64,000 nt of DNA from Candidatus Ryanbacteria bacterium CG10_big_fil_rev_8_21_14_0_10_43_42. Lineage in GTDB: Bacteria; Patescibacteriota; Minisyncoccia; Ryanbacterales; 2-02-FULL-48-12. The stretch lies in NCBI GenBank assembly GCA_002793915.1, contig PFEF01000006.1, positions 97,368 through 161,367 on the forward strand. Reading direction: 5' to 3'. A program made the position numbers and the translations under genes. This document shows positions 12,793 through 56,380 of this stretch, one piece after another; position 1 is the first letter of the stretch, and each line of letters starts with the position of its first letter. Below the pieces are notes generated by a model, which saw only the letters and a program-made list of their open reading frames with translations, did not search any database and was not told the origin of the DNA.

Positions 12793-13536
12793 ATGAGACG
12801 CATGCGATGGCAGAGTTGGGCTTTGGGATTTTCTCTTTTATATATTTTAGTTAAGGGATTTGGTTCATCTGAATATGCGAGTATGGTAACGCCCGCACGC
12901 TTTTATATACAGTCTTATTTTGTAGAAACGCGCCTGGTTGTATACGAAGGGGAATACTGGCGTGTTGTACTACACGAAAAGCAGAATCCGCATTTCTTGC
13001 GGAGCATCGTGCGTTTAAAACGGGTATGCGAATCTCCCGTATGCCTAACGTCTGCTGAAAGGCGAGAACGGGATGAGATAGAACTCGTACTACATACTTT
13101 GGTACTTAGATATGGCGCCACCTACACCAACTTTATGCGTCTTATGAATAATGCTTATCGTTCGCCGATTCCTATGCCGGTAATGCATTATCACTTTATT
13201 CCGCGCTACAAAACCCCATTTTCTTTTGGAGAGATATATTTTCATGATAAGGCGTATGGGCGTCATTATTCTGAAAACGAAGAAAAGCCGGTTCCTCCCG
13301 CACTTATGCTTCTCATAAAAAATATTGTAGGGAAAGAATTTAAAGACCGTATGCCAAAGCCATCCGCAGAGGTGGCTTTTTTCTTGAAAAAAAGGAAGAA
13401 CCATGGTATGGTTTTTTGTAGATTTCAAATTAAAATATTTCGAAATTTACGAGGGCGAATTTCGGTAGCTCATCTGGTAGAGCGGTTTGATATGCCCCCA
13501 GCATATCAAACTTGCACTGCGGAGGGTGGAAAGTAA
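12793..13536 (+). CDS. hypothetical protein (possible HIT-like fold); the 3' end runs into the tRNA-like element
   Basis: 247 aa ORF with no family recognised with confidence. The last 27 codons are translated from the tRNA-Ala-like sequence, so the true C-terminus or the gene's integrity is uncertain. Confidence 0.3.
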   Translation: MRRMRWQSWALGFSLLYILVKGFGSSEYASMVTPARFYIQSYFVETRLVVYEGEYWRVVLHEKQNPHFLRSIVRLKRVCESPVCLTSAERRERDEIELVLHTLVLRYGATYTNFMRLMNNAYRSPIPMPVMHYHFIPRYKTPFSFGEIYFHDKAYGRHYSENEEKPVPPALMLLIKNIVGKEFKDRMPKPSAEVAFFLKKRKNHGMVFCRFQIKIFRNLRGRISVAHLVERFDMPPAYQTCTAEGGK

Positions 13537-13611: not shown

Positions 13612-13684
13612 GGGCCCGTAGCTCATCTGGTAGAGCGCCGCACTTGCACTGCGGAGGTGGCAGGTTCGAGTCCTGTCGGGTCCA
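13612..13684 (+). tRNA. tRNA-Ala (anticodon TGC)
   Basis: Acceptor gggcccg/cgggtcc with a G3:U70 pair, anticodon loop ctTGCac, T-loop ttcgagt. Confidence 0.9.
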
Positions 13685-13812
13685 CATCGTAAATCTCAAT
13701 AACCGTTTTTAACCTCCCGCTGTCCGCGTGCCGGCAAGGCGGAAAGAGGGAGTTTTTGGTTTGCTTAGCCGCTTTCTTGTTTACAAAACCCCTTAAATCC
13801 GATATGATTTAA

Positions 13813-13848
13813 ATATAGATATTCCATACTTTATATTATAATCTATAT
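13813..13848 (+). promoter_or_regulatory. inverted repeat (atatagat ... atctatat) spanning a TATAAT-like box upstream of the XRE gene; candidate operator
   Basis: 8 bp inverted-repeat arms separated by about 20 nt, 25-60 nt upstream of the ATG at 13872. Confidence 0.3.
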
Positions 13849-13871
13849 ACCAATTTATATAACAGAAAGTT

Positions 13872-14069
13872 ATGAAAATTGCAGATAACCTCAAAAAAAT
13901 AAGAGCGGAAAAGAGCTACTCTCTCGAAAAAGTGGCGCGGTTAGCTGATTTGTCGCTCAATACGGTTGTAAAGATAGAAAGCGGGGTCAATAAGAATCCT
14001 ACTATCGATACTCTTTCCAAAATCGCCAAGGCGCTTGAGGTTGATGTTGATGATTTAATACAGAAGTAG
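13872..14069 (+). CDS. XRE-family helix-turn-helix regulator (controller/C-protein-like)
   Basis: 65 aa with an HTH_XRE pattern (SLEKVARLADLSLNTVVKIESG). The stop codon lies 2 nt before the methyltransferase ATG. Confidence 0.7.
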   Translation: MKIADNLKKIRAEKSYSLEKVARLADLSLNTVVKIESGVNKNPTIDTLSKIAKALEVDVDDLIQK

Positions 14070-14071
14070 TT

Positions 14072-15190
14072 ATGAACACCCAAACCTTAAACATGGGCCT
14101 TAACAAGGCTGGTCAAGCAAAGAAAGATGAGTTTTATACTCAGCTCGTTGATATTGAAAAAGAGTTGAAGCATTACAAAAATCAATTTCGAGGCAAGGTT
14201 GTTTATTGCAACTGCGACGATCCGTTTGAGAGTAACTTTTTTAAATATTTCGCTGGTAATTTTAATGCACTGGGATTGAAAAAACTAATTGCGACGAGCT
14301 ACAAGCCGTCACCTATTGCAAATACACAGCTTGGACTATTTGGTGACGAAGAAGTGCTGACAAAATCCAAAGGCCGTCCAAAAGTGACTGCCAATAAATT
14401 TATCATCAACGAAGTTGATGATTTTGATGGCGACGGTGCTTTTGATTTACGTGATGTCGCTGAACAGCTCAAAGCAAACAAAAACAACGAATGGGCACCG
14501 TTAGATAGCGAGGGAGATTTTAGAAGTCCAGAAAGTATAGAGTTGCTTAAACAAGCTGACATTGTAGTGACAAATCCGCCATTTTCACTCTTTCGTGAGT
14601 ATGTAGCCCAACTTGTTGAATACGATAAGAAATTTTTAATACTTGGGGACCAAAACGCCATAACATACAAGGAGATTTTTAAGTTAATTAGCGACGATAA
14701 AATATGGCTCGGTTACGATAATGGAGGCACGAAATGGTTTCAAGTCCCGATGGATTACGACATTCCAACTGAATCAAGAAAGAAAATCGTAAACGGCGTG
14801 AAGTATTTCAGTATGGGAAGAATTATGTGGTTTACAAATCTTGAGACCACAAAACGTCACGAGAGACTGACTTTGTATAAAACATACACCGCACAAGAAT
14901 ATCCTAAATACGACAACTATCCTGCAATAAACGTTGATAAAGTCTCTGATATTCCAATGGACTACGATGGAATAATGGGTGTCCCTATTACTTTCATCGA
15001 TAAATACAATCCAGAGCAGTTTGAAATATTAGGCATTACTGATAGACAAAACACGTCTGGTCTCCGAACGAAAAAATATACAGAAGCGGACAATCCTAAA
15101 TACAACGACTTAAATGCTCGTAGCGTGATAAAAACTGGCAATACTTACAAAGCTGTGTACGCGCGACTTTTAATAAGAAATAAAAAATAA
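14072..15190 (+). CDS. N6-adenine DNA methyltransferase (NPPF motif; EcoRI-methylase-like family)
   Basis: VVTNPPFSL is catalytic motif IV of amino-methyltransferases. The N-terminal DEFYT..CDDPFES region is as in the EcoRI-methylase family, recalled from memory. Translationally coupled to its neighbours. Confidence 0.55.
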   Translation: MNTQTLNMGLNKAGQAKKDEFYTQLVDIEKELKHYKNQFRGKVVYCNCDDPFESNFFKYFAGNFNALGLKKLIATSYKPSPIANTQLGLFGDEEVLTKSKGRPKVTANKFIINEVDDFDGDGAFDLRDVAEQLKANKNNEWAPLDSEGDFRSPESIELLKQADIVVTNPPFSLFREYVAQLVEYDKKFLILGDQNAITYKEIFKLISDDKIWLGYDNGGTKWFQVPMDYDIPTESRKKIVNGVKYFSMGRIMWFTNLETTKRHERLTLYKTYTAQEYPKYDNYPAINVDKVSDIPMDYDGIMGVPITFIDKYNPEQFEILGITDRQNTSGLRTKKYTEADNPKYNDLNARSVIKTGNTYKAVYARLLIRNKK

Positions 15191-15192
15191 TT

Positions 15193-16296
15193 ATGAAAAT
15201 TGAACTACACAGAATCAAAATACGTGAGGTAGTCAATGGCTACGCAGACAATCATGAAGAAGGTGTGGTTGCTTATGGTGGCAAGCTCGATATTCGACCT
15301 AAATATCAACGTGAATTTGTCTATAAAGATAAACAGCGCGATGCGGTCATTGATACCGTAAAGAAAAATTTTCCGCTCAATGTGATGTATTGGGTAAAAA
15401 GCGACGACGATAGCTTTGAGGTGTTAGACGGACAGCAAAGAACAATCAGTATCGGGCAATTTGCGAATGGAGATTTTTCGGTGGACTTTAATGGTCGCAC
15501 TGCTATGTTCCACAACCTTACTAAAGAAGAACAGGGGCAAATCCTCGATTACGAATTGATGGTGTACTTCTGTGAAGGAACAGATAAGGAAAAGTTAGAT
15601 TGGTTCAAGATTATCAACATCGCAGGCGAACGTCTTACCGATCAAGAATTGCGAAATGCTGTTTACACTGGCACATGGCTTTCGGACGCAAAACTTAAGT
15701 TTAGTAAATCTGGCTGCGCGGCATATCTTTTGGCAAATGATGGCGGCGCATTGCTTACAGGTTCACCAATTAGACAAGAGTACCTAGAAACTGCACTCTC
15801 GTGGATCAATAGCGGCGAAATTGCCGAATATATGGCAAAGCATCAGCACGACAAGAATGCCGATGAGCTGTGGAAGTATTTCCAAAATGTTATTGCGTGG
15901 GTGCGTCAGACATTTCCGAACTATCGCAAAGAAATGGCGCACGTAAATTGGGGCGAGTTGTACAACCAATTCAAGGATAAAAAGCTAAACGCCAAGAAAC
16001 TTGAAACAGAAGTTGCAGAATTTATGAAAGACGAAGATGTAACAAAAAAATCTGGTATCTATCCGTATGTTTTGACGCGAAATGAGCGGCATTTAAATAT
16101 CCGTTCATTTACTGACAATATGAAGCGAGAGGCGTACGAGAGGCAGAAAGGTATTTGTGCATTCTGCAAAGAAAAGTTTGATATTTCTGATATGGAAGCT
16201 GATCACATTACCCCTTGGCATGAGGGCGGCAAAACTAACGCAAAAAATTGCCAGTTGTTGTGCAAAGACGATAACCGAAGGAAATCTGGAAAGTAA
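15193..16296 (+). CDS. DUF262 (ParB-like, DGQQR) domain fused to a C-terminal HNH endonuclease
   Basis: LDGQQRTISIGQF is the DUF262 hallmark. The C-terminus CAFCKEKF...ADHITPWHEGGKTNAKNCQLLCKDDNRRK is an HNH motif. Its start overlaps the methyltransferase stop (taattATG). Confidence 0.7.
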   Translation: MKIELHRIKIREVVNGYADNHEEGVVAYGGKLDIRPKYQREFVYKDKQRDAVIDTVKKNFPLNVMYWVKSDDDSFEVLDGQQRTISIGQFANGDFSVDFNGRTAMFHNLTKEEQGQILDYELMVYFCEGTDKEKLDWFKIINIAGERLTDQELRNAVYTGTWLSDAKLKFSKSGCAAYLLANDGGALLTGSPIRQEYLETALSWINSGEIAEYMAKHQHDKNADELWKYFQNVIAWVRQTFPNYRKEMAHVNWGELYNQFKDKKLNAKKLETEVAEFMKDEDVTKKSGIYPYVLTRNERHLNIRSFTDNMKREAYERQKGICAFCKEKFDISDMEADHITPWHEGGKTNAKNCQLLCKDDNRRKSGK

Positions 16297-16306
16297 CACT
16301 AACACC

Positions 16307-19300
16307 ATGAGGCTACCTCCCCAAACAATACGAACACTGTTAGAGGCAATTTTTTGGGGATCTGCTGTTTCGTTTACCTTTATTCTTGGATCCGCTATTG
16401 GATCATGGTTTTCGTTGAATATTCTCCCAGACTATTCATGGTTGATTACTCGTAAGGGCGAGGCATTTTATATTTTTGTATTCGCTCTTTTATTCTCTTA
16501 TCTTTACTTTCGAGATTTTCTACAAGTAGTATGGAAGGTCATAAAGAGTTCGAGATTTGATATTTTTATTGCGGCAGGATTAAGTGCATTGGTGGTCTTT
16601 AGCAATAAAAATATACTTTCTACATACATACAGGAGCATGTAATGGAACTAAACAGCGACAGCGTATTACTTTTCTTTATTATTGTATTTATTTTGTCGC
16701 TATCATGCGTACTGTATGTGATACTGCAAATGTTTAACCGCAGAAAGAAAGTGGACTCAAAATTTGCAAATGATAACCCAATTAGGGATTCCGAAGGCGA
16801 TCTCCTGGATTTTAGTACAAAAGCAAATTCGTTCGCAGAGAATATCTTTCATGCTTCACAGGGTAAGGGTTTAGTGTTTGGTGTAGATGCCCCTTGGGGA
16901 TCTGGTAAGTCATCATTTTTAAATCTCTGTAAGAGGTATTGGGAAATCAAACATAAAAACGAGTTAATTGTGTACGAATTTAGTCCCTTACACTATTCAA
17001 CAGATGCTAATTTACTTGAGAGATTTGTGGATGGTCTAATAAAAGAAATACAAAAGAATGTTTTTATTCCTGAGATACGCCCACTTTTTTCTCAATATTC
17101 TAAGCTCATCAAGATAGTAAATGGATTTAGTATTTTTGGGGTAAAAATTCCAGAATTTGCTAGTAGGCGCACCATTAACGATGTACATAATGATTTAGAG
17201 TGTGCACTAAATGGAATCAATAGGAGAATAATCGTTATTGTAGACGACCTAGACCGCATAGAATTAAAAGAGATTAAGAACGTATTGTTTGCAATACGTG
17301 AAAGTTTTAAATTCCCCAATATTTCGTATGTCTTATGTTACGACACAGAGAATATAAATGCATTGGAGGCAGATACGCCAGAGATTGAGACGGTGAATGA
17401 ATTCCTGGAGAAATTCGTCAATATTAAGATAAGTATTTTCCTCGATAAGAAAAACCTAGAGAATTTCGTTTCAAAAGAATTGAAAAAGGTAATTGAGGAC
17501 AAAACAACAGATCCAGAACTTGTTGCTGTCGTATTAAGCGGACTACGCGACATATTTCAATCACCTGAATTTCATCGTTATACGTCCTTTGTCGGAGACA
17601 TTAGAAAATTGAAGCGACTTGTGAATACGGTGGTTCTTTTAGAGTTGTATAAAGTAAACTTCGATAAAGCAGATATTGATAAGTTTGATTTAGCTCATTT
17701 ACTACTGATTTATATTAATTATCCAAGTATTTTCAGAAAAATTTATAACACCGAAACTGCAGGTGGTTATGGTTTTTTCTCTGCAGTTGGTCCCTATGAC
17801 AGTGAGTTTTATCCAAAAGATAAGAAGAGAAACAATGGAGAAAGGAGCGACACATATGAAAATTCTGATGTATACAACGAATATCTAGAGGACTTAACAG
17901 ATAATCAAAAGTTTCTCATTGAGCAGATATTTAATGTCACTAGGCGACTTAAGCGAGCAAAAAATAATGATAGTGCAAACCACTACATCAATAATGAAGA
18001 TTCATATCGAAAGATAGACAGTGTATCGGAAGACATAAAAACTTCCCTGGCATGTTTCAATGGTGACAAATTTACTGGTTCTGGTCGCAATCTAGAAGAT
18101 TATTTGCGTTTAATTGCTCATCTAGCGCCGCCAGAAGAAGAAAAGCAATTTGCACCTTTCAAAAACTGGCGAGACAAGATCATTAGCGAAGATATAACTA
18201 TAGAACAACTTTTTAATCAACCAGAATTTTCTGTTGAACTTGGCGAGCAAAAGCGACAAAAACTTTGGCGTCTCATTGTAAACAACACAAGGAAACTGAA
18301 TCAAAATGTTGCTGGTAATTTAATAAGGTATCTGACACAAAATATATCTAAATATTCCCTGTTTGAAAACGAGGTTCTTGGCGTAGGACTACGTCATCAT
18401 GATCTTCCTTATTTTTTGGTACGACTGCTTAATGATGCTGGATATAAAGGTAGCATGAATGGTAATAATACGGAGGAAAACATCAAAGAAATCGCTGATT
18501 GGATTTTCGGTGAAGACACCCACAAAGATGAAGGAATACTAGACGCCTTGTTAGAAGATGAGCGAGGTATTCTTGGTCTATATGATTCACTTAGTTTGAG
18601 ATTGATCTGCTGTTCCGATAGAGGTGGCGATATTTTCAACGTATCTAGAGCAATAGCAAAACACGGTAATAAAGAAGCTCCTACTGCGGGGGACACGAGA
18701 ATCATTGTAAAAGAAGAAATGCGTGAAATTTCACAGAAAATTTTTGGTGTGTTTAAATCACGATACATTGACAAAAAGATTAACATTTTTTCGGAAGTTC
18801 AAAAGTTGTCTTTGGATAATATAACGGGAGAATATTCCACTTATGTGCGAAATCAAGTGAAAGGCGGTGTTATATCTGAAGATAAGTTACAGGCAGATGT
18901 TGAATATACAAAATTTAATGCTTTAGGTTTTATTGTTTACCAGCTAGGTGATGACCAGATAAATCACGGGGTTGGTTGTGGTCTTTATGATCCTCTCGGA
19001 AATGCTGACAAAGGAATGATCAAAAACTTGATGAATAAGTATCTATTTGAGAGGTGCTTTAATCCGACAACCAGTGAGAATAATTATGAGAATCTTTTAA
19101 GTTTGCTTTTGAGGAATATTCCATTTGATGCTCTCAGGGAAGATCATTTTGGTAAAATTCCTGACTTTAAGTTAAAAACGATTGTTGGTGTTCTTGATAT
19201 ACAAACTCTCTCTGAATTTTGGAAGGAACATAGAGAAAAAATCAAGAAACTAAACTTTGAGAATTCAGGTAAAAAAATATTTATGGGAACACGATATGTA

Positions 19301-19414
19301 AATTCAGATTCTGAGGATATTTTTGCGTCCTATCAAAACGACTTGCCACGTGTATATAAGGCACTCGATGATTATATCGATAACCCTACTGGCAAAGGGG
19401 AGTCGCCCGCATAG
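16307..19414 (+). CDS. KAP-family P-loop NTPase with an N-terminal 4-5 helix transmembrane region
   Basis: Walker A GVDAPWGSGKSSFLNL and Walker B IIVIVDDLDR within a KAP-like region, preceded by about 180 aa of transmembrane helices. The ORF track begins at 16157, but the ATG at 16307 sits just after the upstream stop. Confidence 0.7.
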   Translation: MRLPPQTIRTLLEAIFWGSAVSFTFILGSAIGSWFSLNILPDYSWLITRKGEAFYIFVFALLFSYLYFRDFLQVVWKVIKSSRFDIFIAAGLSALVVFSNKNILSTYIQEHVMELNSDSVLLFFIIVFILSLSCVLYVILQMFNRRKKVDSKFANDNPIRDSEGDLLDFSTKANSFAENIFHASQGKGLVFGVDAPWGSGKSSFLNLCKRYWEIKHKNELIVYEFSPLHYSTDANLLERFVDGLIKEIQKNVFIPEIRPLFSQYSKLIKIVNGFSIFGVKIPEFASRRTINDVHNDLECALNGINRRIIVIVDDLDRIELKEIKNVLFAIRESFKFPNISYVLCYDTENINALEADTPEIETVNEFLEKFVNIKISIFLDKKNLENFVSKELKKVIEDKTTDPELVAVVLSGLRDIFQSPEFHRYTSFVGDIRKLKRLVNTVVLLELYKVNFDKADIDKFDLAHLLLIYINYPSIFRKIYNTETAGGYGFFSAVGPYDSEFYPKDKKRNNGERSDTYENSDVYNEYLEDLTDNQKFLIEQIFNVTRRLKRAKNNDSANHYINNEDSYRKIDSVSEDIKTSLACFNGDKFTGSGRNLEDYLRLIAHLAPPEEEKQFAPFKNWRDKIISEDITIEQLFNQPEFSVELGEQKRQKLWRLIVNNTRKLNQNVAGNLIRYLTQNISKYSLFENEVLGVGLRHHDLPYFLVRLLNDAGYKGSMNGNNTEENIKEIADWIFGEDTHKDEGILDALLEDERGILGLYDSLSLRLICCSDRGGDIFNVSRAIAKHGNKEAPTAGDTRIIVKEEMREISQKIFGVFKSRYIDKKINIFSEVQKLSLDNITGEYSTYVRNQVKGGVISEDKLQADVEYTKFNALGFIVYQLGDDQINHGVGCGLYDPLGNADKGMIKNLMNKYLFERCFNPTTSENNYENLLSLLLRNIPFDALREDHFGKIPDFKLKTIVGVLDIQTLSEFWKEHREKIKKLNFENSGKKIFMGTRYVNSDSEDIFASYQNDLPRVYKALDDYIDNPTGKGESPA

Positions 19415-19468
19415 CGGGCGGTTTGCGCGCGCACTGGGAGGGTGGGGCAAACGCAAAGACATTTTTTG
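19404..19468 (+). terminator. GC-rich tandem hairpins ending in a T-run; the KAP gene stop codon lies in the first loop
   Basis: cgcccgc-atag-gcgggcg, then gtttgc..gcaaac, then attttttg. Confidence 0.4.
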
Positions 19469-19542
19469 CCTACTTTGTTATAATTCACAAAAAGCGGACA
19501 TGTCGACCCGCTCTCATATAAATCAACTAACCTTTTATAACT

Positions 19543-19887
19543 ATGGCTAAAAAAATTTCAACTGAAGAAGTAAAGAGTAAATTGGATAAAAACGAGAACT
19601 TTTATCTCATTGATACATTGGCGGCCAACAGCTTTGAGGCGCGCCACATCCCCGGAGCAAAAAGCATGCCGTATGGAACTGATTTTATAAAACAATTTGA
19701 GCAAGTAATTAACGCCCAGAAAGACGCAGAGATCATAACTTATTGCGCCTCAAATGGATGTCAGCTATCAGCGTTGGCCGCCAATGCTCTTGAAGAAGCC
19801 GGCTATACGAATGTTGGTCATTATGTTGACGGTCTCGCAGGTTGGCAAAACGCAGGCCATAAATTTGAAGGAGAAGCGACGAAATAG
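19543..19887 (+). CDS. rhodanese-domain sulfurtransferase
   Basis: Active-site loop YCASNGCQ in a 114 aa single-domain protein. Confidence 0.7.
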   Translation: MAKKISTEEVKSKLDKNENFYLIDTLAANSFEARHIPGAKSMPYGTDFIKQFEQVINAQKDAEIITYCASNGCQLSALAANALEEAGYTNVGHYVDGLAGWQNAGHKFEGEATK

Positions 19888-19985
19888 TTTGGATTAAGGG
19901 AGTAAAATTATGCGCACACTGGGCGAGTGTGGCAAGCACAATATGGTAAACTACAAGGGTCGATTAATAACTAACCATAAAAACT

Positions 19986-20186
19986 ATGAAAACTCTAAAA
20001 TGTGATATGTGCGACCATGAAGCACAGGGCGAAACGTTTGGGGAGTGGATGAATAATCTCAAGCCACATTATACCGAGGCGCATGCTGAAGTTATGAAGG
20101 GAAAGGCAGATCTAACTCCCGAACAACAAAAGACGGAAATGCAGAAGTGGATGGACGAGAACAAGGCAAGATTCGAAGCCGCGTAG
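19986..20186 (+). CDS. small DUF1059-like protein
   Basis: 66 aa, MKxLKCDMCDHEAQGET...HYTEAHAEVM pattern resembling DUF1059 (recalled from memory). Confidence 0.35.
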   Translation: MKTLKCDMCDHEAQGETFGEWMNNLKPHYTEAHAEVMKGKADLTPEQQKTEMQKWMDENKARFEAA

Positions 20187-20304
20187 TTTTGCCGCACAAA
20201 CATCGCCGAAGCCACAGAGCGAACACGAAGCAAACACCGAGCTCCATTTAGTAAATACCCGGAAAAGTCCTTATTTTAAATCATGTCATGCCTCTTTTGA
20301 TCCT

Positions 20305-20326
20305 CTATATCACTAGATTGATATAG
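20305..20326 (+). promoter_or_regulatory. palindrome ctatatca-ctagat-tgatatag upstream of the fic gene; candidate operator
   Basis: Perfect 8 bp inverted arms, about 160 nt upstream of the Fic start. Confidence 0.25.
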
Positions 20327-20487
20327 TAAAAATGCTTGATTTATCAGTGGATACTAGGCCAGTTTTTTAGGGCTGATTATGTCGGCTTTTTGCACCAAGT
20401 CGTAATACAAATATCCTTATTGCACTTTTTGTGGATATCTGGTAATATGGGAATACGTGTTTCAACTTAGACAAAACAAGTAAAACT

Positions 20488-21651
20488 ATGGAGAACAAAG
20501 CACAGCAAAATGACAAATTTATGGCAGGTACTCACAAAAAGCACTTCTGGGGTAAGGATTATGAATACCAGAGTTTTTTGCCGTCTCCGGTAAATCATCC
20601 CTACGAGTGGCAAGATAAAAGAATTCCTGTTCTCCTTGAAGAGGCAATTAGACTTGTCGGAGAATTAAATGCTTATTCCATCCTTGTGCCGGATGTAGAT
20701 TTTTTCATTCAAATGCATGTGCGCAATGAAGCGGTAAAATCCAGTCGCATTGAAGGCACTCGCACTGGTATGGATGAAGCTGTTTTGCCGGAAGAAGAAA
20801 TCTCTCCGGAAAAAAGAGATGACTGGACTGAGGTACAAAATTATATTGCCGCAATGAATAAGAGTATTGCCCGATTGAATGAGCTCCCGATCTCGATGAG
20901 GCTTTTACAAGAAGCTCATAAGATTTTATTGTCCGGCGTTCGTGGTGAACACAAACAACCGGGAGAAGTTCGCACCGCACAAAATTGGATTGGCGGCACA
21001 AGTATTCAGACCGCCGCTTTTATTCCACCCCATCCGGAAGATATGGGAGAGGCCTTAAAGGACCTTGAATTTTTTTGGCATAACAAAGGATTGAATATGC
21101 CCCACTTAATCAAGATGGCTATTTCGCATTATCAGTTTGAGACGATTCACCCGTTCAATGACGGCAACGGGAGAATTGGCCGTATGCTCATCGGGCTTCA
21201 TCTCATCGAGCTTGGAATTTTGCGAAAACCAACCCTGTATCTTTCGGACTTCTTTGAAAGAAATAAAGGTGCGTATTATGACGCGCTTACTTTTGTGCGA
21301 GAGAGGAATGATCTGGATCAATGGATAGTCTTTTTCCTCTCGGCAGTTATTGAGACGGCCAAAAAAGGCAAAGATACGTTCGAGAAAATTATCGATCTGC
21401 GTGCTCGCTACGAGAAACAAACTATGGAGCTCGGACGCCGGGCAAAACTGGCTCATAAACTTTTATTACAGTCATTTTCCATGCCTGCTTTTAAAGTTTC
21501 TGATGCATCAAAGTATCTTAACGCTTCAAACACGGCGACCAACACCCTTGTCGGCGAAATGGAGCGCGTTGGTATTCTTAAGGAAATTACCGGTTTTTCC
21601 CGTAACCGGATTTTTGTCCTGCACGAGTATCTGGAACTTTTTAAGAGATAA
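20488..21651 (+). CDS. fic: Fic-family protein (AMPylator/toxin-like) with an intramolecular inhibitory motif
   Basis: Fic motif [12 protein letters not shown], an N-terminal SSRIEG ([ST]xxxE[GN]) inhibitory helix, and a C-terminal winged-helix-like tail. Confidence 0.85.
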
Positions 21652-21857
21652 AGCTATGAAAAAGGAAATCGCCACAACAACTAAACAGGAAAGCTACTAC
21701 AGATTTGGATTTGTGGGATTAGGATTTAGTGTCAGCCACTATTGAATTTAATTCCCGTCAGGTCCACCCTGTTTTGATAAAATCAACTTTATGTTATATT
21801 ATCTAAACGATTGACAGTCAGGTGAGGAGAGTCAATTTCTCCAAAAACTTAAAACAG

Positions 21858-21888
21858 TCCCGTGGAATCCACGGGGCTGTTTTTATTG
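21858..21888 (+). terminator. hairpin cccgtgg-aat-ccacggg followed by ctgttttta
   Basis: Read directly in the sequence, 200 nt downstream of fic in a gene-free A+T-rich stretch. Confidence 0.3.
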
Positions 21889-22002
21889 GGCACACAGAAA
21901 AACTAAAAGGAAAGCCGGCCATCCTTCTATTTTTGCCTCTGGTTCCGTATTCTGTCGCACGGGCGTATTTCTTCATATACGATATTCTGGTACATTTAAG
22001 AT

Positions 22003-23461: not shown

Positions 23462-24511
23462 ATGGAAAAATTGATAATTTATAATGGCGTATATATGGAA
23501 TCTGTAAAAAATACCGATAAAAATATACACGCCGTCTTTGAAGGGGGCGGCGTAAAAGGGACGGGACTTGTAGGGGCCGTGCAGGTAACGGAGGATCACG
23601 GATATATATTTGACCGTGTCGCGGGTACTTCGGCGGGTGCTATTATAGCCGCTCTTATAGCGGCCGGTTATACGGCAAGCGAAATGAAAGAAATTATGTT
23701 TGCATTGGATTATAGGAAGTTTAAAGATAAGGGACTGGGAGACAGTATACCGCTTGTAGGACCTCTTGCGAGTTTGCTTATTACAAAAGGTATTTATGAA
23801 GGAGATTATTTTGAAAACTGGTTAAGAGATTTGCTCTTACAAAAGAATATCAGAACTTTCAAGGATCTTTTGATTGATGAAAACATCAAAGACTCGACGT
23901 ACAGATACAAGCTTCAGGTCATAGCGTCGGATGTTTCGCGCGGAAGACTTATTACACTTCCGCATGACGTGAGCGAATATGGTTTTGTACCCAATGATTT
24001 TGATGTTGCAAGAGCTGTTAGAATGAGTATGAGCATTCCTTTTTTCTATAAGCCGGTTATCATGAAAAATGCAAAAGGGGACGCTTCATTCATTGTAGAC
24101 GGAGGAATTTTAAGTAATTATCCCGTTGGAATTTTTGATCCCGTGGGAAATACGAGTCCTCTCTGGCCAACATTCGGCTATAAACTGGTGGAACCGGATG
24201 AATATAAGCCACACAATATCAACGGTCCGGTAAGCCTTTTAGCGGCACTGTTTTCGACCATGATGGAGGCGCATGATGCAAGATATATTAAGGATACGAA
24301 TTTCCAGCGTACGATACCCATAGAAACGCTGGGTGTCCAAACCACCGATTTTGATACGACCATAGAGAAAAAACAGGAGCTTTATGAAAGCGGAAAAAAG
24401 GCCGCAGAGGAATTTTTCCAAAAGTGGAACTTTGAAGAATACAATCAAAAGCGTGGAAAAGGAGAAAGCCGCAGACAGCAAGTTTGGAAATCGAAAGAAG
24501 AGGCGGGATGA
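23462..24511 (+). CDS. patatin-like phospholipase
   Basis: GGGVKG oxyanion motif, GTSAG serine-nucleophile motif and DGG. Confidence 0.8.
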
Positions 24512-27432: not shown

Positions 27433-27495
27433 AGAGCTTTTAGTGCTTTAAGGGGGGAAGTTGACCTTTTTTATGGATTATGTTATTATGCGCAC

Positions 27496-28521
27496 ATGGT
27501 ATCAATGCATCCACAAAAGGCGGTAGAAATACTTACGGCGGAATTACCTAAACGATCGGGAGCTGTTCTCGAGAAGCGTTTTGGTTTGGGTAAAACCGGC
27601 AAGCGTCAAACGCTTGAAGCTATTGGAAAAGGGTATGGCATAACACGGGAACGTGTACGCCAGATTGAGCGCGATAGCATAATACGTATTAAAAAGAGTG
27701 CGGCATATAAGGATGTTATGCCGGTGTTTTTTGTATTTGAGGAATATATAACACAGAAGGGAGGTATTGTTGCGGAAGATCAGCTGGTACGCCAGTTTGA
27801 TACGGACGGAAAGTCGCAAAATCATATCGTTTTTTTGCTCACATTAGCACCGGCAATAGATCACAAGCCGGAGAACGATGAACTTGCAAGTCGGTGGATA
27901 ACCAATACTGAAAAAATGACTGCCGTAGAAAACGCTCTTAATGCCGTACATGCCGACATCGAGCAAAGCACAAGTCTTCTTTCGCGTGATGAATTGGTAA
28001 GCAAGGTGCAAAACCATATGGAGGCGCATAATGTATCGGCAGACTCCGATGAGCTTGATCGGTACATTGGTATTTCAAAATGCATCGGAGAGAATTGCTT
28101 TGGTCAGTGGGGACACGCAAGTTCGAGTCTTGTGCGTCCGCGCGGCGTGCGCGATATGGCTTATTTGGTATTTCAGCGGGAAGGGAAGCCTCTTCATTTT
28201 TTGAGTGTGGCAAATCTTATCCGTGATCTTGTAGCGGAACGCAGTGTTCATGCGCAAACAGTGCATAATGAGCTTATTAAAGATAGCCGTTTTGTGTTGG
28301 TGGGGCGCGGTATGTATGGTCTTCGGGAGTGGGGGTACGAACCGGGTACGGTACGGGATATTATTATGCGCATGCTCCGAAAAGATTCGCTTACCAAGGA
28401 AGAAATTGTGGATAAGGTGCTTGATAAACGGCAGGTAAAAGCTAATACCATTCTTATTAATTTGCAAAATAAAAAGTTTTTTAAAAAGCTTTCTGACGGC
28501 CGGTATACGGCGGTGGCATAA
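27496..28521 (+). CDS. sigma-70 region-4 HTH domain protein with an uncharacterised 260 aa C-terminal extension
   Basis: The N-terminal LEAIGKGYGITRERVRQIE matches the region 4.2 HTH of sigma70 factors. No region 2 was recognised. Confidence 0.5.
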   Translation: MVSMHPQKAVEILTAELPKRSGAVLEKRFGLGKTGKRQTLEAIGKGYGITRERVRQIERDSIIRIKKSAAYKDVMPVFFVFEEYITQKGGIVAEDQLVRQFDTDGKSQNHIVFLLTLAPAIDHKPENDELASRWITNTEKMTAVENALNAVHADIEQSTSLLSRDELVSKVQNHMEAHNVSADSDELDRYIGISKCIGENCFGQWGHASSSLVRPRGVRDMAYLVFQREGKPLHFLSVANLIRDLVAERSVHAQTVHNELIKDSRFVLVGRGMYGLREWGYEPGTVRDIIMRMLRKDSLTKEEIVDKVLDKRQVKANTILINLQNKKFFKKLSDGRYTAVA

Positions 28522-28618
28522 AGAACAATGTCGATATCTTATTGGTTTGGCGGGCGCCTTTCATGATATACTTATCATGCAGGGAGGGAAACTCATAAGA
28601 TAACGATGTGCGTGTATT

Positions 28619-29899
28619 GTGGAAACTCAATTGACAATTTCTCTTTTTAAGGCGGCGGTAACTACATGGTTCATTTGGTTGCCTGTTTTGTCGTTCCTTG
28701 TTCTTGTGGTTACATGGCTTGATTATAAGCGCACGATATTTATTGCCGATGTTGAGTACGTTTTTTTGGAGGTACGCGTGCCTCGTGAAATTAGGCGCGG
28801 ACCCAAGGCAATGGAGCAGTTATTTACCTCTATTTACAGTATTCTTAACTCTACGGTTCCGAGCCATATTATTGACGGTCTTTTATATGGAGAGATAGCG
28901 CTTACTATGTCGTTTGAAATTGTTTCCATTGGCGGAGAAGTACATTTTTTTATTAAGACGCCTAAGAAATTTAAAAATATTCTCGAAGCAAATTTGTTTG
29001 GATGTTATGCCGATCTGGAAATTGCCGTGGTTCCCGATTACACCGAGCGTATGCCGAGTACGTATGCCGACCTTGCCGAAAATAATTATGAGTTGTGGGG
29101 ATCGGAGCTTGTCTTGATGACGGACGATGTTTATCCCATTCGTACATATGTGGAGTTTGAATCCATGGATGAATATGCTCAGTTGGATCCCATTGCCACG
29201 CTCGTTGAAATGTTGAGTAAGTTGCAGGTGGAAGAGGAGCTTTGGATACAGTTTATTATTGTTCCGGCGGGTATGGAATGGCGCGCAAAAGGGCAAAAAG
29301 TGGTTGAAGGGTTGCGTACTCAGTCAAGCAAAACAACTATAATAGGAGGAGAGAGTACGGTATCCATGGTGGATAGAACACCCGGACAAACAGATATTAT
29401 AAAAGCAATAGAGCGTAATATTTCAAAGCCGGGATATTATACCGTTATTCGCTATGTTTATATAGCACCTAAAAGTATCTACAATAAGGATCTTGCACGA
29501 ACCGGTATCCCAAGCGCGTTTAATCAGTATCAAGCACAAACACTAAATGCCTTTCGGCATGATTTTAGTGTACGCACGCAAACAATATGGCATAAGCATC
29601 CTTATTTTTTCCCCACCTGGCGGCTTTTACAAAGACGAAAGTCTATTTACGATTCATTTATAAAGCGTTCATTTCCGGAAGCGCCATTCTTTAAGCAATT
29701 ATTCACCGGACAAACACTGTCGGCGGATATTCCCATTTTTAACACAGAAGAACTGGCAACGTTGTATCATTATCCAACAGATATTGTTCTTACCGCGCCG
29801 TCAATGAAGCGCGTGGAGTCGAAGAAGGTGGGTCCTCCCGCGGGACTTCCTATTTTTCAGGAAACGGGAGATAGTATTCAGGGTTTTAAGAATAAATAA
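28619..29899 (+). CDS. hypothetical membrane-anchored protein (first gene of an ATPase module)
   Basis: 426 aa with an N-terminal transmembrane helix and no family recognised. Tightly spaced with the two downstream genes. Confidence 0.4.
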   Translation: METQLTISLFKAAVTTWFIWLPVLSFLVLVVTWLDYKRTIFIADVEYVFLEVRVPREIRRGPKAMEQLFTSIYSILNSTVPSHIIDGLLYGEIALTMSFEIVSIGGEVHFFIKTPKKFKNILEANLFGCYADLEIAVVPDYTERMPSTYADLAENNYELWGSELVLMTDDVYPIRTYVEFESMDEYAQLDPIATLVEMLSKLQVEEELWIQFIIVPAGMEWRAKGQKVVEGLRTQSSKTTIIGGESTVSMVDRTPGQTDIIKAIERNISKPGYYTVIRYVYIAPKSIYNKDLARTGIPSAFNQYQAQTLNAFRHDFSVRTQTIWHKHPYFFPTWRLLQRRKSIYDSFIKRSFPEAPFFKQLFTGQTLSADIPIFNTEELATLYHYPTDIVLTAPSMKRVESKKVGPPAGLPIFQETGDSIQGFKNK

Positions 29900-29908
29900 A
29901 GAAACGAT

Positions 29909-30424
29909 ATGGATGGATCGGTGTCATATACCATACTTGCTGTCATAAAATCACTTGCGCTTCTTATTACGTTATTTTCATGGGTAATGATTGTTTATGC
30001 TATTATGAAAAAGCGGGAATTTATGGAAGCTCGTCCCGGAGACATGCTGGCGAAGAATACGGAACCAAAAAAAGATCCCGATTTACAGAATAATATTCGT
30101 ACCCAAAAAATTGCCCGCGAAGGATGGACGCGTATCACCGGCAAGATAGATGCAACAGAACAAAAAGATTTTAAATCGGCAATTATTGAAGCGGATGCAT
30201 TGGTTGATGCCGTACTAAAAGCGTATAATTATTCGGGTGAAACCATGGGAGATCGTATGAAATCCATAAAAAAGGATGAACTGCCAAGTCTGGATGATTT
30301 ATGGCAAATACATAAACTGCGCAATACTGTTGCGCACCATCCTACGTACGAAATTACCTCAAAGAGGGGAGAAAGTGCTCTTAAAACATACGAAAAAATA
30401 CTGCGGGAATTGGGGGCAATATAA
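29909..30424 (+). CDS. hypothetical small membrane protein
   Basis: 171 aa with an N-terminal transmembrane helix (LAVIKSLALLITLFSWVMIVYAIM), 9 nt after the previous stop. Confidence 0.4.
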   Translation: MDGSVSYTILAVIKSLALLITLFSWVMIVYAIMKKREFMEARPGDMLAKNTEPKKDPDLQNNIRTQKIAREGWTRITGKIDATEQKDFKSAIIEADALVDAVLKAYNYSGETMGDRMKSIKKDELPSLDDLWQIHKLRNTVAHHPTYEITSKRGESALKTYEKILRELGAI

Positions 30425-30455
30425 ATACAAAAACTATGTATACTAATCTTTAAAA

Positions 30456-32219
30456 ATGGATGACAGCGTAGCCTATTTTGCAAAAACAAATTTCCGCAAT
30501 AAAGAGCGGATGTTTGGTATACAAAAAAAAGACCGCCGCCAGCACATGTATGTTATCGGACAGACCGGTACGGGGAAATCGACGTTTCTTAAAAATATTG
30601 CGCTTCAAGATATACGATCGGGGCATGGTATTTGTATTGTTGATCCGCACGGAGAATTTGTGGAAGAAGTTCTCGAAATGATTCCATCGGAGCGCATTCG
30701 AGACGTTATTTATTTTAACCCGGCCGATAGTAATAATCCGGTAGGTTTTAATGTCCTCGAAGTGCCGGAACAGACAACGAATACGGATTACCGTACCATT
30801 GCCGCCTCGGGTCTTATGGGGATTTTTACCAAAATTTGGGCGAATGTCTGGTCATCGCGAATGGAATATATTCTCAATAACGCCGTACTTGCCCTTCTTG
30901 AAATGCCGGGCGCAACGCTTTTGGGTATTCAACGTATTCTTATCGATAAAGAATACCGCAAAGAAGTGCTCTCTCATGTGAAAAACGATCAAGTGCGCGC
31001 TTTTTGGACGCAGGAATACGATTTATGGGAGCCGCGATTTCGTAATGAAGCCATAGCGGCCATTCAAAACAAAGTGGGACAATTTTTATCTTCTCCCCTT
31101 ATTCGTAATATCGTAGGACAGCCAAAAACATCACTTAATCTGTATGATGCGATGAATCAAGAGAAGATTATTTTGGTAAATGTATCGAAGGGGCGTATCG
31201 GGGAAGATAATTCCCAGCTTTTGGGAGCTATGATTATTACCAAAATTCAGTTGGCAGCCATGGAGCGTGTACAAATTCCTGAAGATGATCGGAAGGATTT
31301 TTACTTATATGTTGATGAGTTTCAAAATTTTGCAACGGATTCATTTGCGTCCATTCTTTCCGAGGCGCGTAAATATCGTCTGAATATTATCATTGCTCAT
31401 CAATACATCGGACAACTCGTTACCGAAACAAGCACCAAAGTGCGGGACGCTGTTTTTGGAAACGTGGGCACAATGGTTACGTTTCGCGTGGGTGCTACGG
31501 ATGCGGAGTTTTTGGAAAAAGAATTTGCGCCGGAAGTAACCATTCAGGATTTAGTCGGTCTTCCTAATCATAATATTTTTCTAAAACTTATGATTAACAA
31601 TGTGCGGTGCGCGCCGTTTTCAGCAACAACTCTGCCGCCATTAGCTATTGATACCGAAGAGCGTACAGCGGAAAAAATAATAGAATATTCTCGAAAGACC
31701 TATGCACGTAATAAAGATGAGGTAGAAACGGAAATACGTGCACTAAGCAAGATAATTGATGCCATACCCCAGTCCAAGTCGCATAAGCCGATATCGCCTG
31801 TAAGGTCGGACCACGCACCTGCGCGTCCTGTTATCGTGCCTCGGCGAGAACCGCCCAAACAGCATGAGTCGTATTCTTCATCGCACGTAAAAAAGGAGAA
31901 GGAAGATGTTCCTGTTCCGCAACCAACAAAACCGGTAGAGCCCAAAAAAGTTCTTTCACTGGCATCTCTTCTTCCCAAAAAAGAAGAAAAGAATGACGCT
32001 ACTGATATAAGAAAAGAGTACACATCACGAAAGGAAGAAAAAAAGCCGGAACGGAAAAAGAGGCCGGCAGGTATGACAGATTTAAGAGAAGCTCTTCATC
32101 GCGCACTGCAAAAAAAGAATTCTCCTGTGCGGGAAAACACGCAAACATCTTCGTCAAAAGAAACAAAGCAAGAAGTGCGCGGAGAACGGCTTGAGCCCGG
32201 GCAAAGTGTAAAGCTGTAA
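30456..32219 (+). CDS. FtsK/HerA-superfamily P-loop ATPase (HerA/DUF87- or VirD4/TraG-like) with a disordered K/E/P-rich C-terminal tail
   Basis: Walker A GQTGTGKST, DPHGEF motif, Walker B YLYVDEFQNF and IIAHQ...QL motif. The last 160 aa are low-complexity. Confidence 0.6.
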   Translation: MDDSVAYFAKTNFRNKERMFGIQKKDRRQHMYVIGQTGTGKSTFLKNIALQDIRSGHGICIVDPHGEFVEEVLEMIPSERIRDVIYFNPADSNNPVGFNVLEVPEQTTNTDYRTIAASGLMGIFTKIWANVWSSRMEYILNNAVLALLEMPGATLLGIQRILIDKEYRKEVLSHVKNDQVRAFWTQEYDLWEPRFRNEAIAAIQNKVGQFLSSPLIRNIVGQPKTSLNLYDAMNQEKIILVNVSKGRIGEDNSQLLGAMIITKIQLAAMERVQIPEDDRKDFYLYVDEFQNFATDSFASILSEARKYRLNIIIAHQYIGQLVTETSTKVRDAVFGNVGTMVTFRVGATDAEFLEKEFAPEVTIQDLVGLPNHNIFLKLMINNVRCAPFSATTLPPLAIDTEERTAEKIIEYSRKTYARNKDEVETEIRALSKIIDAIPQSKSHKPISPVRSDHAPARPVIVPRREPPKQHESYSSSHVKKEKEDVPVPQPTKPVEPKKVLSLASLLPKKEEKNDATDIRKEYTSRKEEKKPERKKRPAGMTDLREALHRALQKKNSPVRENTQTSSSKETKQEVRGERLEPGQSVKL

Positions 32220-55099: not shown

Positions 55100-55135
55100 A
55101 CGGTCGGTTAATTGGTAACCGACCTTGTTCTTTCA
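55100..55135 (+). repeat. terminator hairpin repeat, copy 2
   Basis: acggtcggttaattggtaaccgaccttgttcttt, identical to 54168..54203. Confidence 0.5.
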
Positions 55136-55155
55136 CAACTAGAGGAGGGTAAATG

Positions 55156-56380
55156 TATGAAGATTAGATTGTTCTTGACTGGCACGGTTTTTATCGGTGC
55201 GTTTATTGGATCTGTATACGCAGGATCAATTAATCCTGTAAGTTCTCCGACTGGGACGTTTGATGTACCGCAAGATGAGGATTATTCAGGACCATATTGT
55301 AGTCAGAGTGGATTTAAACTGGATTACGATCAGTACCATATGCAATGGAATGGTATTATCAGTAAATACCATATGGGCGAAGATTGGAACGGAATGTGTG
55401 GTGACGACACGGATGAGGGTTACCCCCTACGAGCAATTGCATTCGGAAAAGTTGTGTATGTGGATGACACGGGCAATTCCACAAAAGGCAAACAGCTTCA
55501 CATTCGGTATTCTTTTCCGTATGCACTGGCACCGAATGATGTGCAAACATTTGATAGCGTGTATTTACACATTACCGGGATTAATCCGAGTGAAGTTTCT
55601 TTTTCCGGATCGGGTACGGGAAGTTTTGTTTCGAAAGGGGATGTTGTCGCATATCTTGGTGGAACTGGTGGGACAGTGGGATGGCCTGCGCATCTTCATT
55701 GGGAGGCATTGTGGGATGATAGTATTTCGCTTACCGAAAATACCTACCAAAATCCACTCACGGTGGATCACGCATTAAAATATCGTGCTCCATCGCTGAT
55801 TGTTGATGATCGGCGCGATATCGTCGGCCATAGCACTCCTGCTCCGGGTAACTGGTATACATTCACCATGCAGGGTAATGCGCCATCATCTACAATGTAC
55901 ATTTGGCATAATGGAGAGCGCAAGAGTTTGAGAAATGCCATTGCGGCTGGATGGATACCGTCAAAGCCCATTCTCCATGAGAGGGATGGAACATGGTACT
56001 ATTACATTGATGTCGACAATAACTTCTTTGAAAACGGTAAAAGGTATGCCATTAAAACACTTATTTCCGGCCCTGTTTTCTACATCCTTATTCCGGGAAA
56101 CGGCTTTACGGAAGACCGTGCCCGACTTGATATGCTTCATGCAGTGGAGAATGATAATGGATACGATTCGGTAAAAACGGAGACGTATAGTGTTGATTAT
56201 AACTGGATGAGTAGTTTTGAGCTTTATCAAATGGAGTTTAAATTATCAAATGGCGATACCGCATATGTATATCAAGCGACAAGCAAGACTAACCCACTAA
56301 TCCGGTATACCAGCCATTATGACACCAGTAGCAGTACCTATTCCGGATGGGTACCGGTGAATTGGAACCGAATGTACTAA
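55156..56380 (+). CDS. secreted M23-family metallopeptidase-like protein with a C-terminal extension
   Basis: Signal peptide from the ATG at 55156, then HMGED (HxxxD) and HLHWE (HxH) motifs. The ORF track starts at 55112. Confidence 0.55.

Follow-up and report, generated by a model that had tools for sequence, protein, structure and literature searches.

A putative split long-form type IV coupling protein with a DNA-binding partner in the chromosomes of Patescibacteria

A large part of bacterial diversity belongs to the Patescibacteria, which live on other cells and rely on secretion machines. Among described systems, those closest to the locus reported here are the type IV coupling proteins (T4CPs), including VirD4, TrwB of plasmid R388, TraD and DotL, which share a P-loop core with a variable C-terminal tail; in the F plasmid, the tail of TraD recognises a relaxosome protein. 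Canonical T4CPs have a transmembrane (TM) domain, and its deletion inactivates TrwB, MobB and PcfC (PMC7431656). A survey published in 2025 reported 5,713 T4CP homologues in 2,918 of 3,035 patescibacterial genomes (96%), with only 148 of them near virB4, as well as VirB4 in 2,417 of the surveyed genomes (80%) and only 109 relaxases; its Table S3 lists 't4cp2' entries in pairs, separated by a few genes and distant from virB4, and its authors wrote that exaptation of the T4CP 'cannot be ruled out' (PMC12102498). Wang et al. (2023) recognised no coupling ATPase in the T4SS (type IV secretion system) cluster and otherwise have nothing specific on one. Here we analyzed a 64-kb chromosomal stretch of DNA (the window) from a metagenome-assembled genome (MAG) of Candidatus Ryanbacteria (Patescibacteria, class Paceibacteria), in which a coupling-type ATPase is encoded together with a protein of the DUF8128 family, and we present evidence that the two correspond to a putative split long-form T4CP.

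The locus comprises genes for a soluble helix-turn-helix (HTH) protein of 341 residues (HTH341), the DUF8128 protein, a small membrane protein (P171) and the ATPase, the coordinates of which are collected in Table 1. The original prediction had described the last three as open reading frames (ORFs) separated by gaps of 9 nt (DUF8128–P171) and 31 nt (P171–ATPase), with one N-terminal TM segment in each of the first two, and this arrangement was confirmed: hydropathy analysis placed a single TM segment at residues 9–36 of the DUF8128 protein and at residues 3–35 of P171, and found no TM or hydrophobic segment in the ATPase and no TM segment in HTH341. Proteins identical to the 426-aa DUF8128 protein and to the 587-aa ATPase are on record for a Ca. 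Ryanbacteria MAG (tags COU90_03075 and COU90_03085, respectively), and both have strong homologues (E values 1e-140 to 1e-230), so that these are real genes and not chance ORFs. Following the positive-inside rule, the KR-rich residues after the TM segments suggest that the soluble domains of the DUF8128 protein and P171 are cytoplasmic.

Pfam and PDB searches identified the ATPase as one of coupling-protein type. The four motifs that had been read from its sequence are all present, namely GQTGTGKST (residues 35–43), DPHGEF (63–68), VDEFQNF (286–292) and IIAHQ (312–316), and the protein exceeded the Pfam cutoffs for TrwB_AAD_bind (PF10412; 59.6 bits against a cutoff of 20.5, E 3.2e-16), TraG-D_C (PF12696; 27.2 bits against 22, E 3.9e-6) and T4SS-DNA_transf (PF02534; 24.3 bits against 20.1, E 1.7e-5). 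It also matched DUF87 (38.2 bits, E 2.2e-9), a generic core match common to T4CPs, and scored 19.9 bits with the VirB4-type family AAA_10, under the cutoff of 27.5. TrwB was the only significant match in sequence and profile searches of the PDB (3e-6); DotL came next with a weak match (E 0.025), before some non-specific ones to the P-loop region. Of the initial assignment as a HerA/VirD4-like ATPase, the VirD4/TrwB part is upheld by Pfam and by the PDB match to TrwB; the DUF87 match is one to the generic core. The NCBIfam equivalogs for T4CPs (TraD, CD1115 and similar) aligned to the P-loop region only, with a best score of 50.5 bits against a cutoff of 366, and the protein stays far under all of their cutoffs (366 or more).

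The ATPase shares the P-loop core and variable C-terminal tail of VirD4, TrwB, TraD and DotL. Unlike canonical T4CPs, its polypeptide has no TM domain and its Walker A motif starts as early as residue 35, the TM segment being carried by the DUF8128 protein instead; neither a relaxase nor a T4SS is linked to it. The low-complexity charged tail noted earlier was found over the last 160 residues (428–587), which are rich in K, P, S, E and R, contain no Cys and have a net charge of +15, and it proved to be a trait of the family. Tails of relatives range from 40 to 312 aa; of 62 complete ORFs, 19 have a CxxC-x17-CxxC zinc ribbon (PF23477) at the tail end, a feature missing from the window ATPase. 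Outside the Patescibacteria, the ATPase core has its closest relative in a stand-alone gene (395 aa, 40.5% identity, E 8e-96) on the alphaproteobacterial plasmid NZ_CP081110.1 of Sulfitobacter mediterraneus (L083, 99994–101181), where it sits among transposases and a recombinase and is possibly a horizontally transferred copy.

A group of long-form T4CPs from Gram-positive, archaeal and phage elements is homologous to both the DUF8128 protein and the ATPase. It includes PHROG 5156 (824 positions, function unknown), gp156 of Bacillus phage G (825 aa) and gp151 of phage Shanette (913 aa), both of which match PHROG 5156 end to end, an 833-aa protein of B. methanolicus pBM69 annotated 'DUF87' and an 812-aa protein of an Embleya plasmid annotated 'T4SS conjugative DNA transfer family'. 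The DUF8128 protein aligns to the N-terminal ~270–400 residues of these proteins and the ATPase to their C-terminal half (25–31% identity, E 1e-25 to 1e-57 by tblastn); on PHROG 5156, the matches extend over positions 75–204 (E 1e-7) and 402–805 (E 3.8e-65), respectively. With hhalign, the DUF8128 profile aligned to gp156 over residues 17–269 (probability 97.5, E 5.5e-12) and to the N-terminal half of the pBM69 protein (probability 97.3), and comparisons with further fused N-terminal halves gave probabilities of 58 and, with the linker motifs aligned, of 48.8.

The Embleya protein also shares an N-terminal TM helix (residues 34–56) with the DUF8128 protein, and the long-form proteins have in common a linker, EE[LM]A..H.P … PP..[LI]P, just before Walker A. 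In the Embleya protein, where Walker A lies at residue 428, this linker reads …PELAALAHLP…APGLTRAGARSVVPPARIP… and includes VVPPARIP; it aligns to the conserved DUF8128 tail, NTEELATIYHPP…KRVESKK.GPPAGLPIF. The lengths agree as well, the DUF8128 protein and the ATPase without its tail adding up to ~850 aa, as compared with 812–913 aa for the fused proteins. Since each of the two corresponds to one half of a single protein, the DUF8128 protein to the N-terminal and the ATPase to the C-terminal half, they are a long-form T4CP that is split in two genes. The original prediction had described two membrane proteins and an ATPase, with VirB6/TrbL among the profiles to compare; the 426-aa protein is not a VirB6/TrbL-like channel but the detached N-terminal half of the coupling protein, so that one split protein takes the place of independent parts.

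The genes beside the fused forms point to the ancestral role of this protein. In the pBM69 and Embleya plasmids, the next gene after the fused one is of the Replic_Relax family, that is, the MOB_C relaxase family (PMC5357655), and VirB4 (AAA_10, 2.4e-119), an NlpC/P60 hydrolase, PrgI/VirB3 and proteins of conjugal transfer are encoded nearby; phage Shanette, too, has a Replic_Relax gene after the fused one. With a MOB_C relaxase and VirB4 alongside, the ancestral protein would have been the coupling ATPase of Gram-positive-type conjugation. The locus described here differs from these long-form systems in being split in two genes, which a HEPN-like insert separates in the window's lineage, in being chromosomal and vertically inherited, and in the long disordered tail of the ATPase; it is without an adjacent MOB_C relaxase or VirB4/PrgI/NlpC-P60 genes and has HTH341 as its constant neighbour instead. 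As for the phages themselves, fused gp156 of phage G lies beside a TraG/VirB4-type P-loop ATPase (gp155; L081, 87999–97159), and Shanette (L082) encodes a Replic_Relax (MOB_C-type) protein, gp150, as well as an actin-like ParM/Alp segregation protein, its own gp156; with such plasmid-like genes, large Bacillus phages carry a conjugation- or partition-like DNA-handling module.

Homologues of the 426-aa protein are annotated PF26449/DUF8128, a family of 3,258 clusters at 50% identity (281–535 aa among the top 150 representatives listed), and a full-text literature search retrieved no paper mentioning DUF8128. Searches with the window protein against the PDB (by sequence), local Pfam and NCBIfam likewise returned nothing. 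In its AlphaFold2 (AF2) model (mean predicted local distance difference test score, pLDDT, 79.5; predicted template modelling score, pTM, 0.78), an alpha/beta domain is preceded by a long helix at the N terminus and followed by a disordered tail. TrwK is the top structural match of this model, and Foldseek independently ranked TrwK chains first (probability 1.0). The DUF8128 protein has no P-loop, and the match to TrwK must therefore be to the VirB4 N-terminal domain; on this model, the cytoplasmic alpha/beta domain is predicted to have a fold like that domain. VirB4/TrwK combines a membrane-associated N-domain with a RecA-like C-domain in a total of ~850 aa, a plan that the DUF8128 protein and the ATPase have in common with it, although the ATPase half is closer to T4CPs and the genes are not beside VirB3, VirB6 or VirB8. 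An analogous split occurs in the patescibacterial T4SS, where TrsD is a stand-alone VirB4-N-like protein beside VirB4 (PMC12102498). Likeness to EccE, the membrane subunit of the mycobacterial type VII (ESX) system, was much weaker, with no sequence relationship, and further ESX components are absent.

Relatives of the 426-aa DUF8128 protein were retrieved from at least 585 genomes in a scan that took a single genome for each GTDB species. Those listed are labelled as Patescibacteria or unclassified bacteria, with the exception of one MAG labelled Bdellovibrionales, and the many labels reading 'uncultured Candidatus Saccharibacteria' seem to have been assigned by default. In the best 80 species-representative loci, to which all counts out of 80 refer, an HTH341 homologue lies immediately 5' of the DUF8128 gene on the same strand in 77, and a homologous coupling-type ATPase is found 3' of it in 67, or 67 of the 75 with enough downstream sequence, given that 5 of the 13 loci lacking the ATPase end at most 1.7 kb past the DUF8128 gene. 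Gene order, which the original prediction proposed to compare across Patescibacteria, is kept across orders even at a DUF8128 identity of ~30%. The 426-aa protein is accordingly a conserved neighbour of the ATPase, as had been suggested; the 171-aa protein is not, since a profile hidden Markov model recovered it in only 16 of the 80 loci, in each case with DUF8128 on one side and the ATPase on the other, and P171 was rejected as a universal third component. Compared with loci that have the same type of ATPase (type a, see below), the window proteins show mean identities of 59% (ATPase), 34% (DUF8128) and 38% (HTH341), and the ATPase remains 52–79% identical to its orthologues in other orders. 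Identities of the ATPase and DUF8128 co-vary (r = 0.89), which largely reflects shared phylogeny. A fused DUF8128–ATPase form was found neither among the 80 loci nor among the top 150 family representatives listed.

Two paralogous types of ATPase occur in these loci. The window holds type a only (76–79% identity to its nearest relatives), whereas type b (435–494 aa, short tail, ~37–43% identity to the window ATPase) lies between DUF8128/P171 and type a in loci L005, L007, L008, L009, L012, L017, L018 and L020, as well as in L087 (7802–9286). Type b proteins begin with K[YL]APPPxxLP[IV]Y, duplicating the C-terminal motif of DUF8128, and this N-terminal motif aligns to the DUF8128 tail in a concatenate of the DUF8128 protein and the window ATPase. 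The fullest form of the locus was seen in a closed Niyogibacteria genome, in which the genes for an HTH protein (341 aa), DUF8128 (447 aa) and a 173-aa protein are followed by a type b ATPase (494 aa, short tail), a 140-aa protein and a type a ATPase with a zinc ribbon (630 aa). The paired t4cp2 entries of the published survey fit such a type a/type b pair; the partner proteins DUF8128 and HTH341 are not discussed there (PMC12102498) and are described here.

HTH341 had been noted originally as a sigma-region-4 HTH protein directly upstream. That description is correct as far as it goes, but the protein is the most constant partner in the 80 loci and not a mere neighbour, and it contains a second conserved domain. 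Its N-terminal sigma-70 region 4 HTH (residues 39–58, TLEAIGKGYGITRERVRQIE) is followed by a variable middle and a highly conserved C-terminal half of HARE-HTH/winged-helix type (residues ~218–287 and beyond), with Pfam E values of 6.4e-10 for Sigma70_r4 and 2.8e-5 for HARE-HTH. Residues 1–75 matched PDB profiles of region 4 of RpoD/SigA and RpoS (~1e-18), and this region also matches MzaA; the HARE-HTH domain is the most conserved part of the protein, and its best NCBIfam match is the delta subunit of RNA polymerase. Sigma region 2 was not detected in HTH341, the rest of the protein being HARE-HTH, and with region 4 but no region 2 it is not a sigma factor. The possibility that it is a diverged MOB_C relaxase was rejected (hhalign probability 0.6 against Replic_Relax). 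HTH341 may be a DNA-recognition adaptor, a regulator of the operon or a factor associated with RNA polymerase.

P171 resembles HEPN proteins, with which it shares an R-N-x3-H motif and a four-helix bundle. R138, N139 and H143 are invariant in 13 aligned sequences, and the protein also carries IEAD and GETMGD motifs. Three HEPN families of Pfam were matched under their cutoffs (E 0.05–0.1, ~13.8 bits against 25–27.5), and sequence and profile searches of the PDB found nothing. The AF2 model of P171 is helical, with four helices (pLDDT 85.8), and Foldseek returned the HEPN structures 2hsb (probability 1.00) and 1ufb (0.99) at the top and also 1wol, with weak E values of 0.06–1. Model and motif together lend moderate support to P171 as a membrane-anchored, HEPN-like accessory that is specific to the lineage. 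It differs from the HEPN-domain proteins compared in being TM-anchored and in having neither a partner nucleotidyltransferase nor a CRISPR context; its architecture may resemble that of the TM-HEPN protein Csx28.

The genomic context of the locus is that of a chromosomal core region. Housekeeping genes (UvrA, EF-P, GatB, MiaA, ThrRS and DnaE) flank it, the wider window also contains those for SMC, Ddl, NusB, TrmD, ribosomal protein S2, UppP and the F-type ATP synthase, and the GC content of the locus (0.428) equals that of the window. Genes for an integrase, a relaxase, VirB4 or a pilin were not found in the window; searches for Replic_Relax and VirB4-like proteins gave no match in the window or in the 80 related loci (~13 kb each), and no NurA is linked in either. 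The immediate neighbours are HTH341, DUF8128, P171 and EF-P, with no NurA or Mre11/Rad50 beside the ATPase. The remark in the original prediction that no NurA or type IV secretion components adjoin the genes is therefore borne out, and the ATPase does not lie within a recognisable integrative element. Furthermore, the 2.9 million viral contigs of IMG/VR yielded a single weak partial match. Core flanks, equal GC content and near-absence from viral contigs show the locus to be vertically inherited and not mobile. A phage-borne module in Patescibacteria was rejected on the IMG/VR result, and a mobile element or defence island on gene context, GC content and synteny.

With moderate confidence, we favour the interpretation that the locus encodes a domesticated, chromosomally fixed and vertically inherited split long-form T4CP with a DNA-binding partner. 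The DUF8128 protein would be its membrane-anchored half, consisting of the TM helix, the VirB4-N-like domain and a flexible linker ending in PPxxLPI[FY]. The motor would be a polypeptide of its own, the 587-aa P-loop NTPase of TrwB/VirD4 type, whose disordered tail is basic. Homology, split architecture, synteny and the missing mobile-element context are established by the analysis, whereas complex formation, ring assembly, the substrate and the link to a T4SS are inferred. On this view, the two halves would come together again at the membrane, on its cytoplasmic face, to form a ring ATPase, in which DUF8128 would tether the motor and dock it through the linker motif, as the VirB4 N-domain or the VirD4 TM domain does. 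HTH341 and the charged tail may select or hold a nucleic-acid or protein substrate, and the HEPN-like P171 would be an accessory of the window's sub-lineage only. Because the ancestral MOB_C relaxase and the adjacent VirB4 system are gone, the process would not be classical conjugation. More tentatively, the module could be a substrate receptor or translocase that feeds a patescibacterial T4SS encoded elsewhere in the genome; Ryanbacteria genomes in the survey dataset do carry VirB4 (PMC12102498). The earlier suggestion of a minimal DNA/protein-translocation or pilus-related module would hence be broadly right as to translocation, and nothing was found that supports a role in pili.

Several observations weigh against this interpretation. 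Binding between DUF8128 and the ATPase is so far a prediction. The likeness of DUF8128 to VirB4 is one of structure only, derived from the AF2 model and from a match printed without residue ranges; against the real VirB4 of pBM69, hhalign gave a probability of 0.3, and DUF8128 as a sequence homologue of the true VirB4 N-domain is thus unsupported. Eight loci have the HTH–DUF8128 pair with other genes, not the ATPase, downstream. In seven of these (L051, L059, L067, L070, L078, L080 and L004), YceG/MltG, a Mur ligase or MurB follows DUF8128 (directly in the first six), and in the eighth (L016) an uncharacterised ORF does; the pair may be linked to cell-wall/division loci there, or the ATPase may be encoded elsewhere in those genomes. 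Both domains of HTH341 are RNA-polymerase-themed, with no similarity to relaxases, and the protein may be a transcription factor and not an adaptor. Finally, T4CP homologues are more widespread in the surveyed assemblies than VirB4, and in Southlakia, where the T4SS is essential, the T4CP homologue was reported to be non-essential, which argues against an obligatory role in T4SS coupling (PMC12102498).

The last two observations would be accounted for by a DNA pump that is independent of any T4SS and works alone or with another channel, with HTH341 as its DNA-recognition factor; such a pump might take up transforming DNA, or clear or segregate the chromosome at division in the manner of FtsK/SpoIIIE. 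We regard this explanation, the main rival, as unlikely. In its favour, besides the excess of T4CP homologues over VirB4, their almost complete separation from virB4 and the reported dispensability of the Southlakia homologue, the sequence identity of the ATPase across orders is as expected for a housekeeping motor, some HTH–DUF8128 pairs lie beside MltG, MurB or MurC, and a basic tail, often ending in a zinc ribbon, is suited to nucleic-acid binding. Yet no channel partner such as ComEC was found in the neighbourhood, every characterised relative works with a T4SS, and MAG incompleteness may explain part of the gap between the frequencies of T4CP homologues and VirB4. A further step along this line, which we offer as speculation and consider distinctly improbable, is that the DNA-processing half of an ancient conjugative element has been domesticated into a relaxase-free, T4SS-independent housekeeping nucleic-acid translocase, with HTH341 delivering specific DNA, or RNA polymerase and its transcript, to the membrane motor for exchange with the host. 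If true, this would be an unrecognised host–symbiont nucleic-acid route in ultra-small bacteria that are unable to make nucleotides.

Sigma region 4 binds the beta-flap of RNA polymerase and the -35 element. The locus could thus be imagined as a machine linked to RNA polymerase or directed at RNA, in which HTH341 tethers the polymerase or transcripts to the membrane motor and the HEPN-like protein and zinc-ribbon tail handle RNA. The match of HTH341 to region 4 of RpoD/SigA and RpoS, the strong conservation of its HARE-HTH domain with the delta subunit as best match, the fact that HTH341 and DUF8128 form the tightest pair in the locus and the invariant RNxxxH motif of P171 would all agree with this. 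The idea is built purely on domain associations, however, the HEPN protein is confined to a minority of loci, no RNA-binding domain was detected in the ATPase core and HTH341 could simply regulate its own operon; we judge it to have little chance of being right.

An anti-phage defence function, with a HerA/MADS-like ATPase and a HEPN effector near a defence island, is very improbable. PADLOC did report mad8 (2.8e-17) and HerA models (1e-7) on the ATPase, HTH341 matches MzaA, a HEPN-like membrane protein is present, and a low-GC stretch 6–13 kb upstream contains genes for an EcoRI-type methylase, a Fic protein and a KAP NTPase. The PADLOC matches cover only the generic ATPase core, however, the neighbouring genes include no further mad genes or HerA partners, the GC content of the locus is unshifted and HEPN is absent from 64 of the 80 loci; unlike patchy defence islands, these are near-universal, syntenic and vertically inherited core genes, in at least 585 species representatives. 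Lastly, two readings can practically be dismissed: a coupling protein of ordinary conjugation that belongs to a plasmid or an integrated element, to which the plasmid- and phage-borne closest non-Patescibacterial relatives and the conjugation families matched in Pfam might point, and a set of three chance neighbours. There are housekeeping genes to either side, an integrase, a relaxase, VirB4, a repeat boundary and a shift in GC content are all lacking, gene order is conserved across orders, and fused relatives physically link two of the genes.

Table 1 Coordinates of the genes and sequence features of the locus (positions in the 64-kb window)
Feature	Position	Strand	Description
Promoter candidate	27461..27489	+	Sigma-70-like, TTGACC-17-TATTAT with TG; best match, 7 nt 5' of HTH341
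HTH341	27496..28521	+	341 aa, soluble HTH protein (Pfam, PDB profile, synteny)
Imperfect inverted repeat	28557..28584	.	Core CATGATA-N4-TATCATG, in the 97-nt spacer HTH341/DUF8128
DUF8128 protein	28619-29899	+	426 aa, GTG start; putative N-terminal half of split long-form T4CP
DUF8128 TM segment	28643-28726	+	From hydropathy
DUF8128 linker motif	29741-29776	+	NTEELATLYHYP, C-terminal linker
DUF8128 linker motif	29831-29857	+	GPPAGLPIF, C-terminal linker
P171	29909-30424	+	171 aa, TM segment and HEPN-like domain; putative lineage-specific insert
P171 motif	30320-30337	+	R138-N-x3-H143
ATPase gene	30456-32219	+	587 aa, P-loop NTPase with disordered tail
ATPase core	30456..31736	+	Residues 1-427; coupling-protein type, 'type a' paralogue
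Walker A	30558-30584	+	GQTGTGKST
Walker B	31311-31331	+	VDEFQNF
ATPase tail	31737..32219	+	Residues 428-587 and stop codon; disordered, K/P/S/E/R-rich

Two further features of Table 1 lie outside the coding sequences. The sigma-70-like site 5' of HTH341 is a possible promoter of the operon, but support for it is weak, as promoter-like sites in the region numbered 11 against 13.4 expected from shuffles. Terminator-like sites numbered 11 against 6.1 expected, every one of them inside coding sequence. The exact palindrome at the core of the inverted repeat occurs once in the window, and the spacer in which it lies varies widely in length from locus to locus; the repeat is possibly an operator for HTH341 or an RNA hairpin.

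Elsewhere in the window, a low-GC stretch (13612–22000; 0.35–0.40 against 0.43) directly follows tRNA-Ala (13612–13685) and encodes an EcoRI-type adenine methyltransferase (14072–15190), a KAP-family P-loop NTPase (16157–19414; 1,085 aa) and a Fic/DOC protein (20488–21651). This stretch resembles a small defence or mobile island and is separate from the ATPase locus. One ORF (3514–4419) combines a NusB domain (residues 7–141) with a NUDIX hydrolase domain (residues 170–293), an unusual fusion, and a 349-aa ORF just 5' of uvrA (23462–24511) has GGGVKG…GTSAG motifs that, as read from the sequence, are of patatin-like phospholipase type. Two sizeable ORFs (12793–13536, 247 aa; 55112–56380, 422 aa) matched nothing in Pfam at E<=1e-5, and a neighbouring 351-aa protein with a DUF11 repeat domain (56691–57746) is maybe a surface protein.

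For the Patescibacteria, these results would give the paired, virB4-distant orphan ATPases a defined partner in DUF8128, their missing membrane-anchored half, together with a constant DNA-binding neighbour and an origin as a split long-form T4CP minus its MOB_C relaxase. What was annotated as a 'hypothetical protein plus orphan ATPase' would become a testable complex, and DUF8128, with its 3,258 clusters, and PHROG 5156 would receive a first structural and functional assignment. The finding bears on how the essential, relaxase-less T4SS of these epibionts may select its substrates or, alternatively, on a separate DNA pump.

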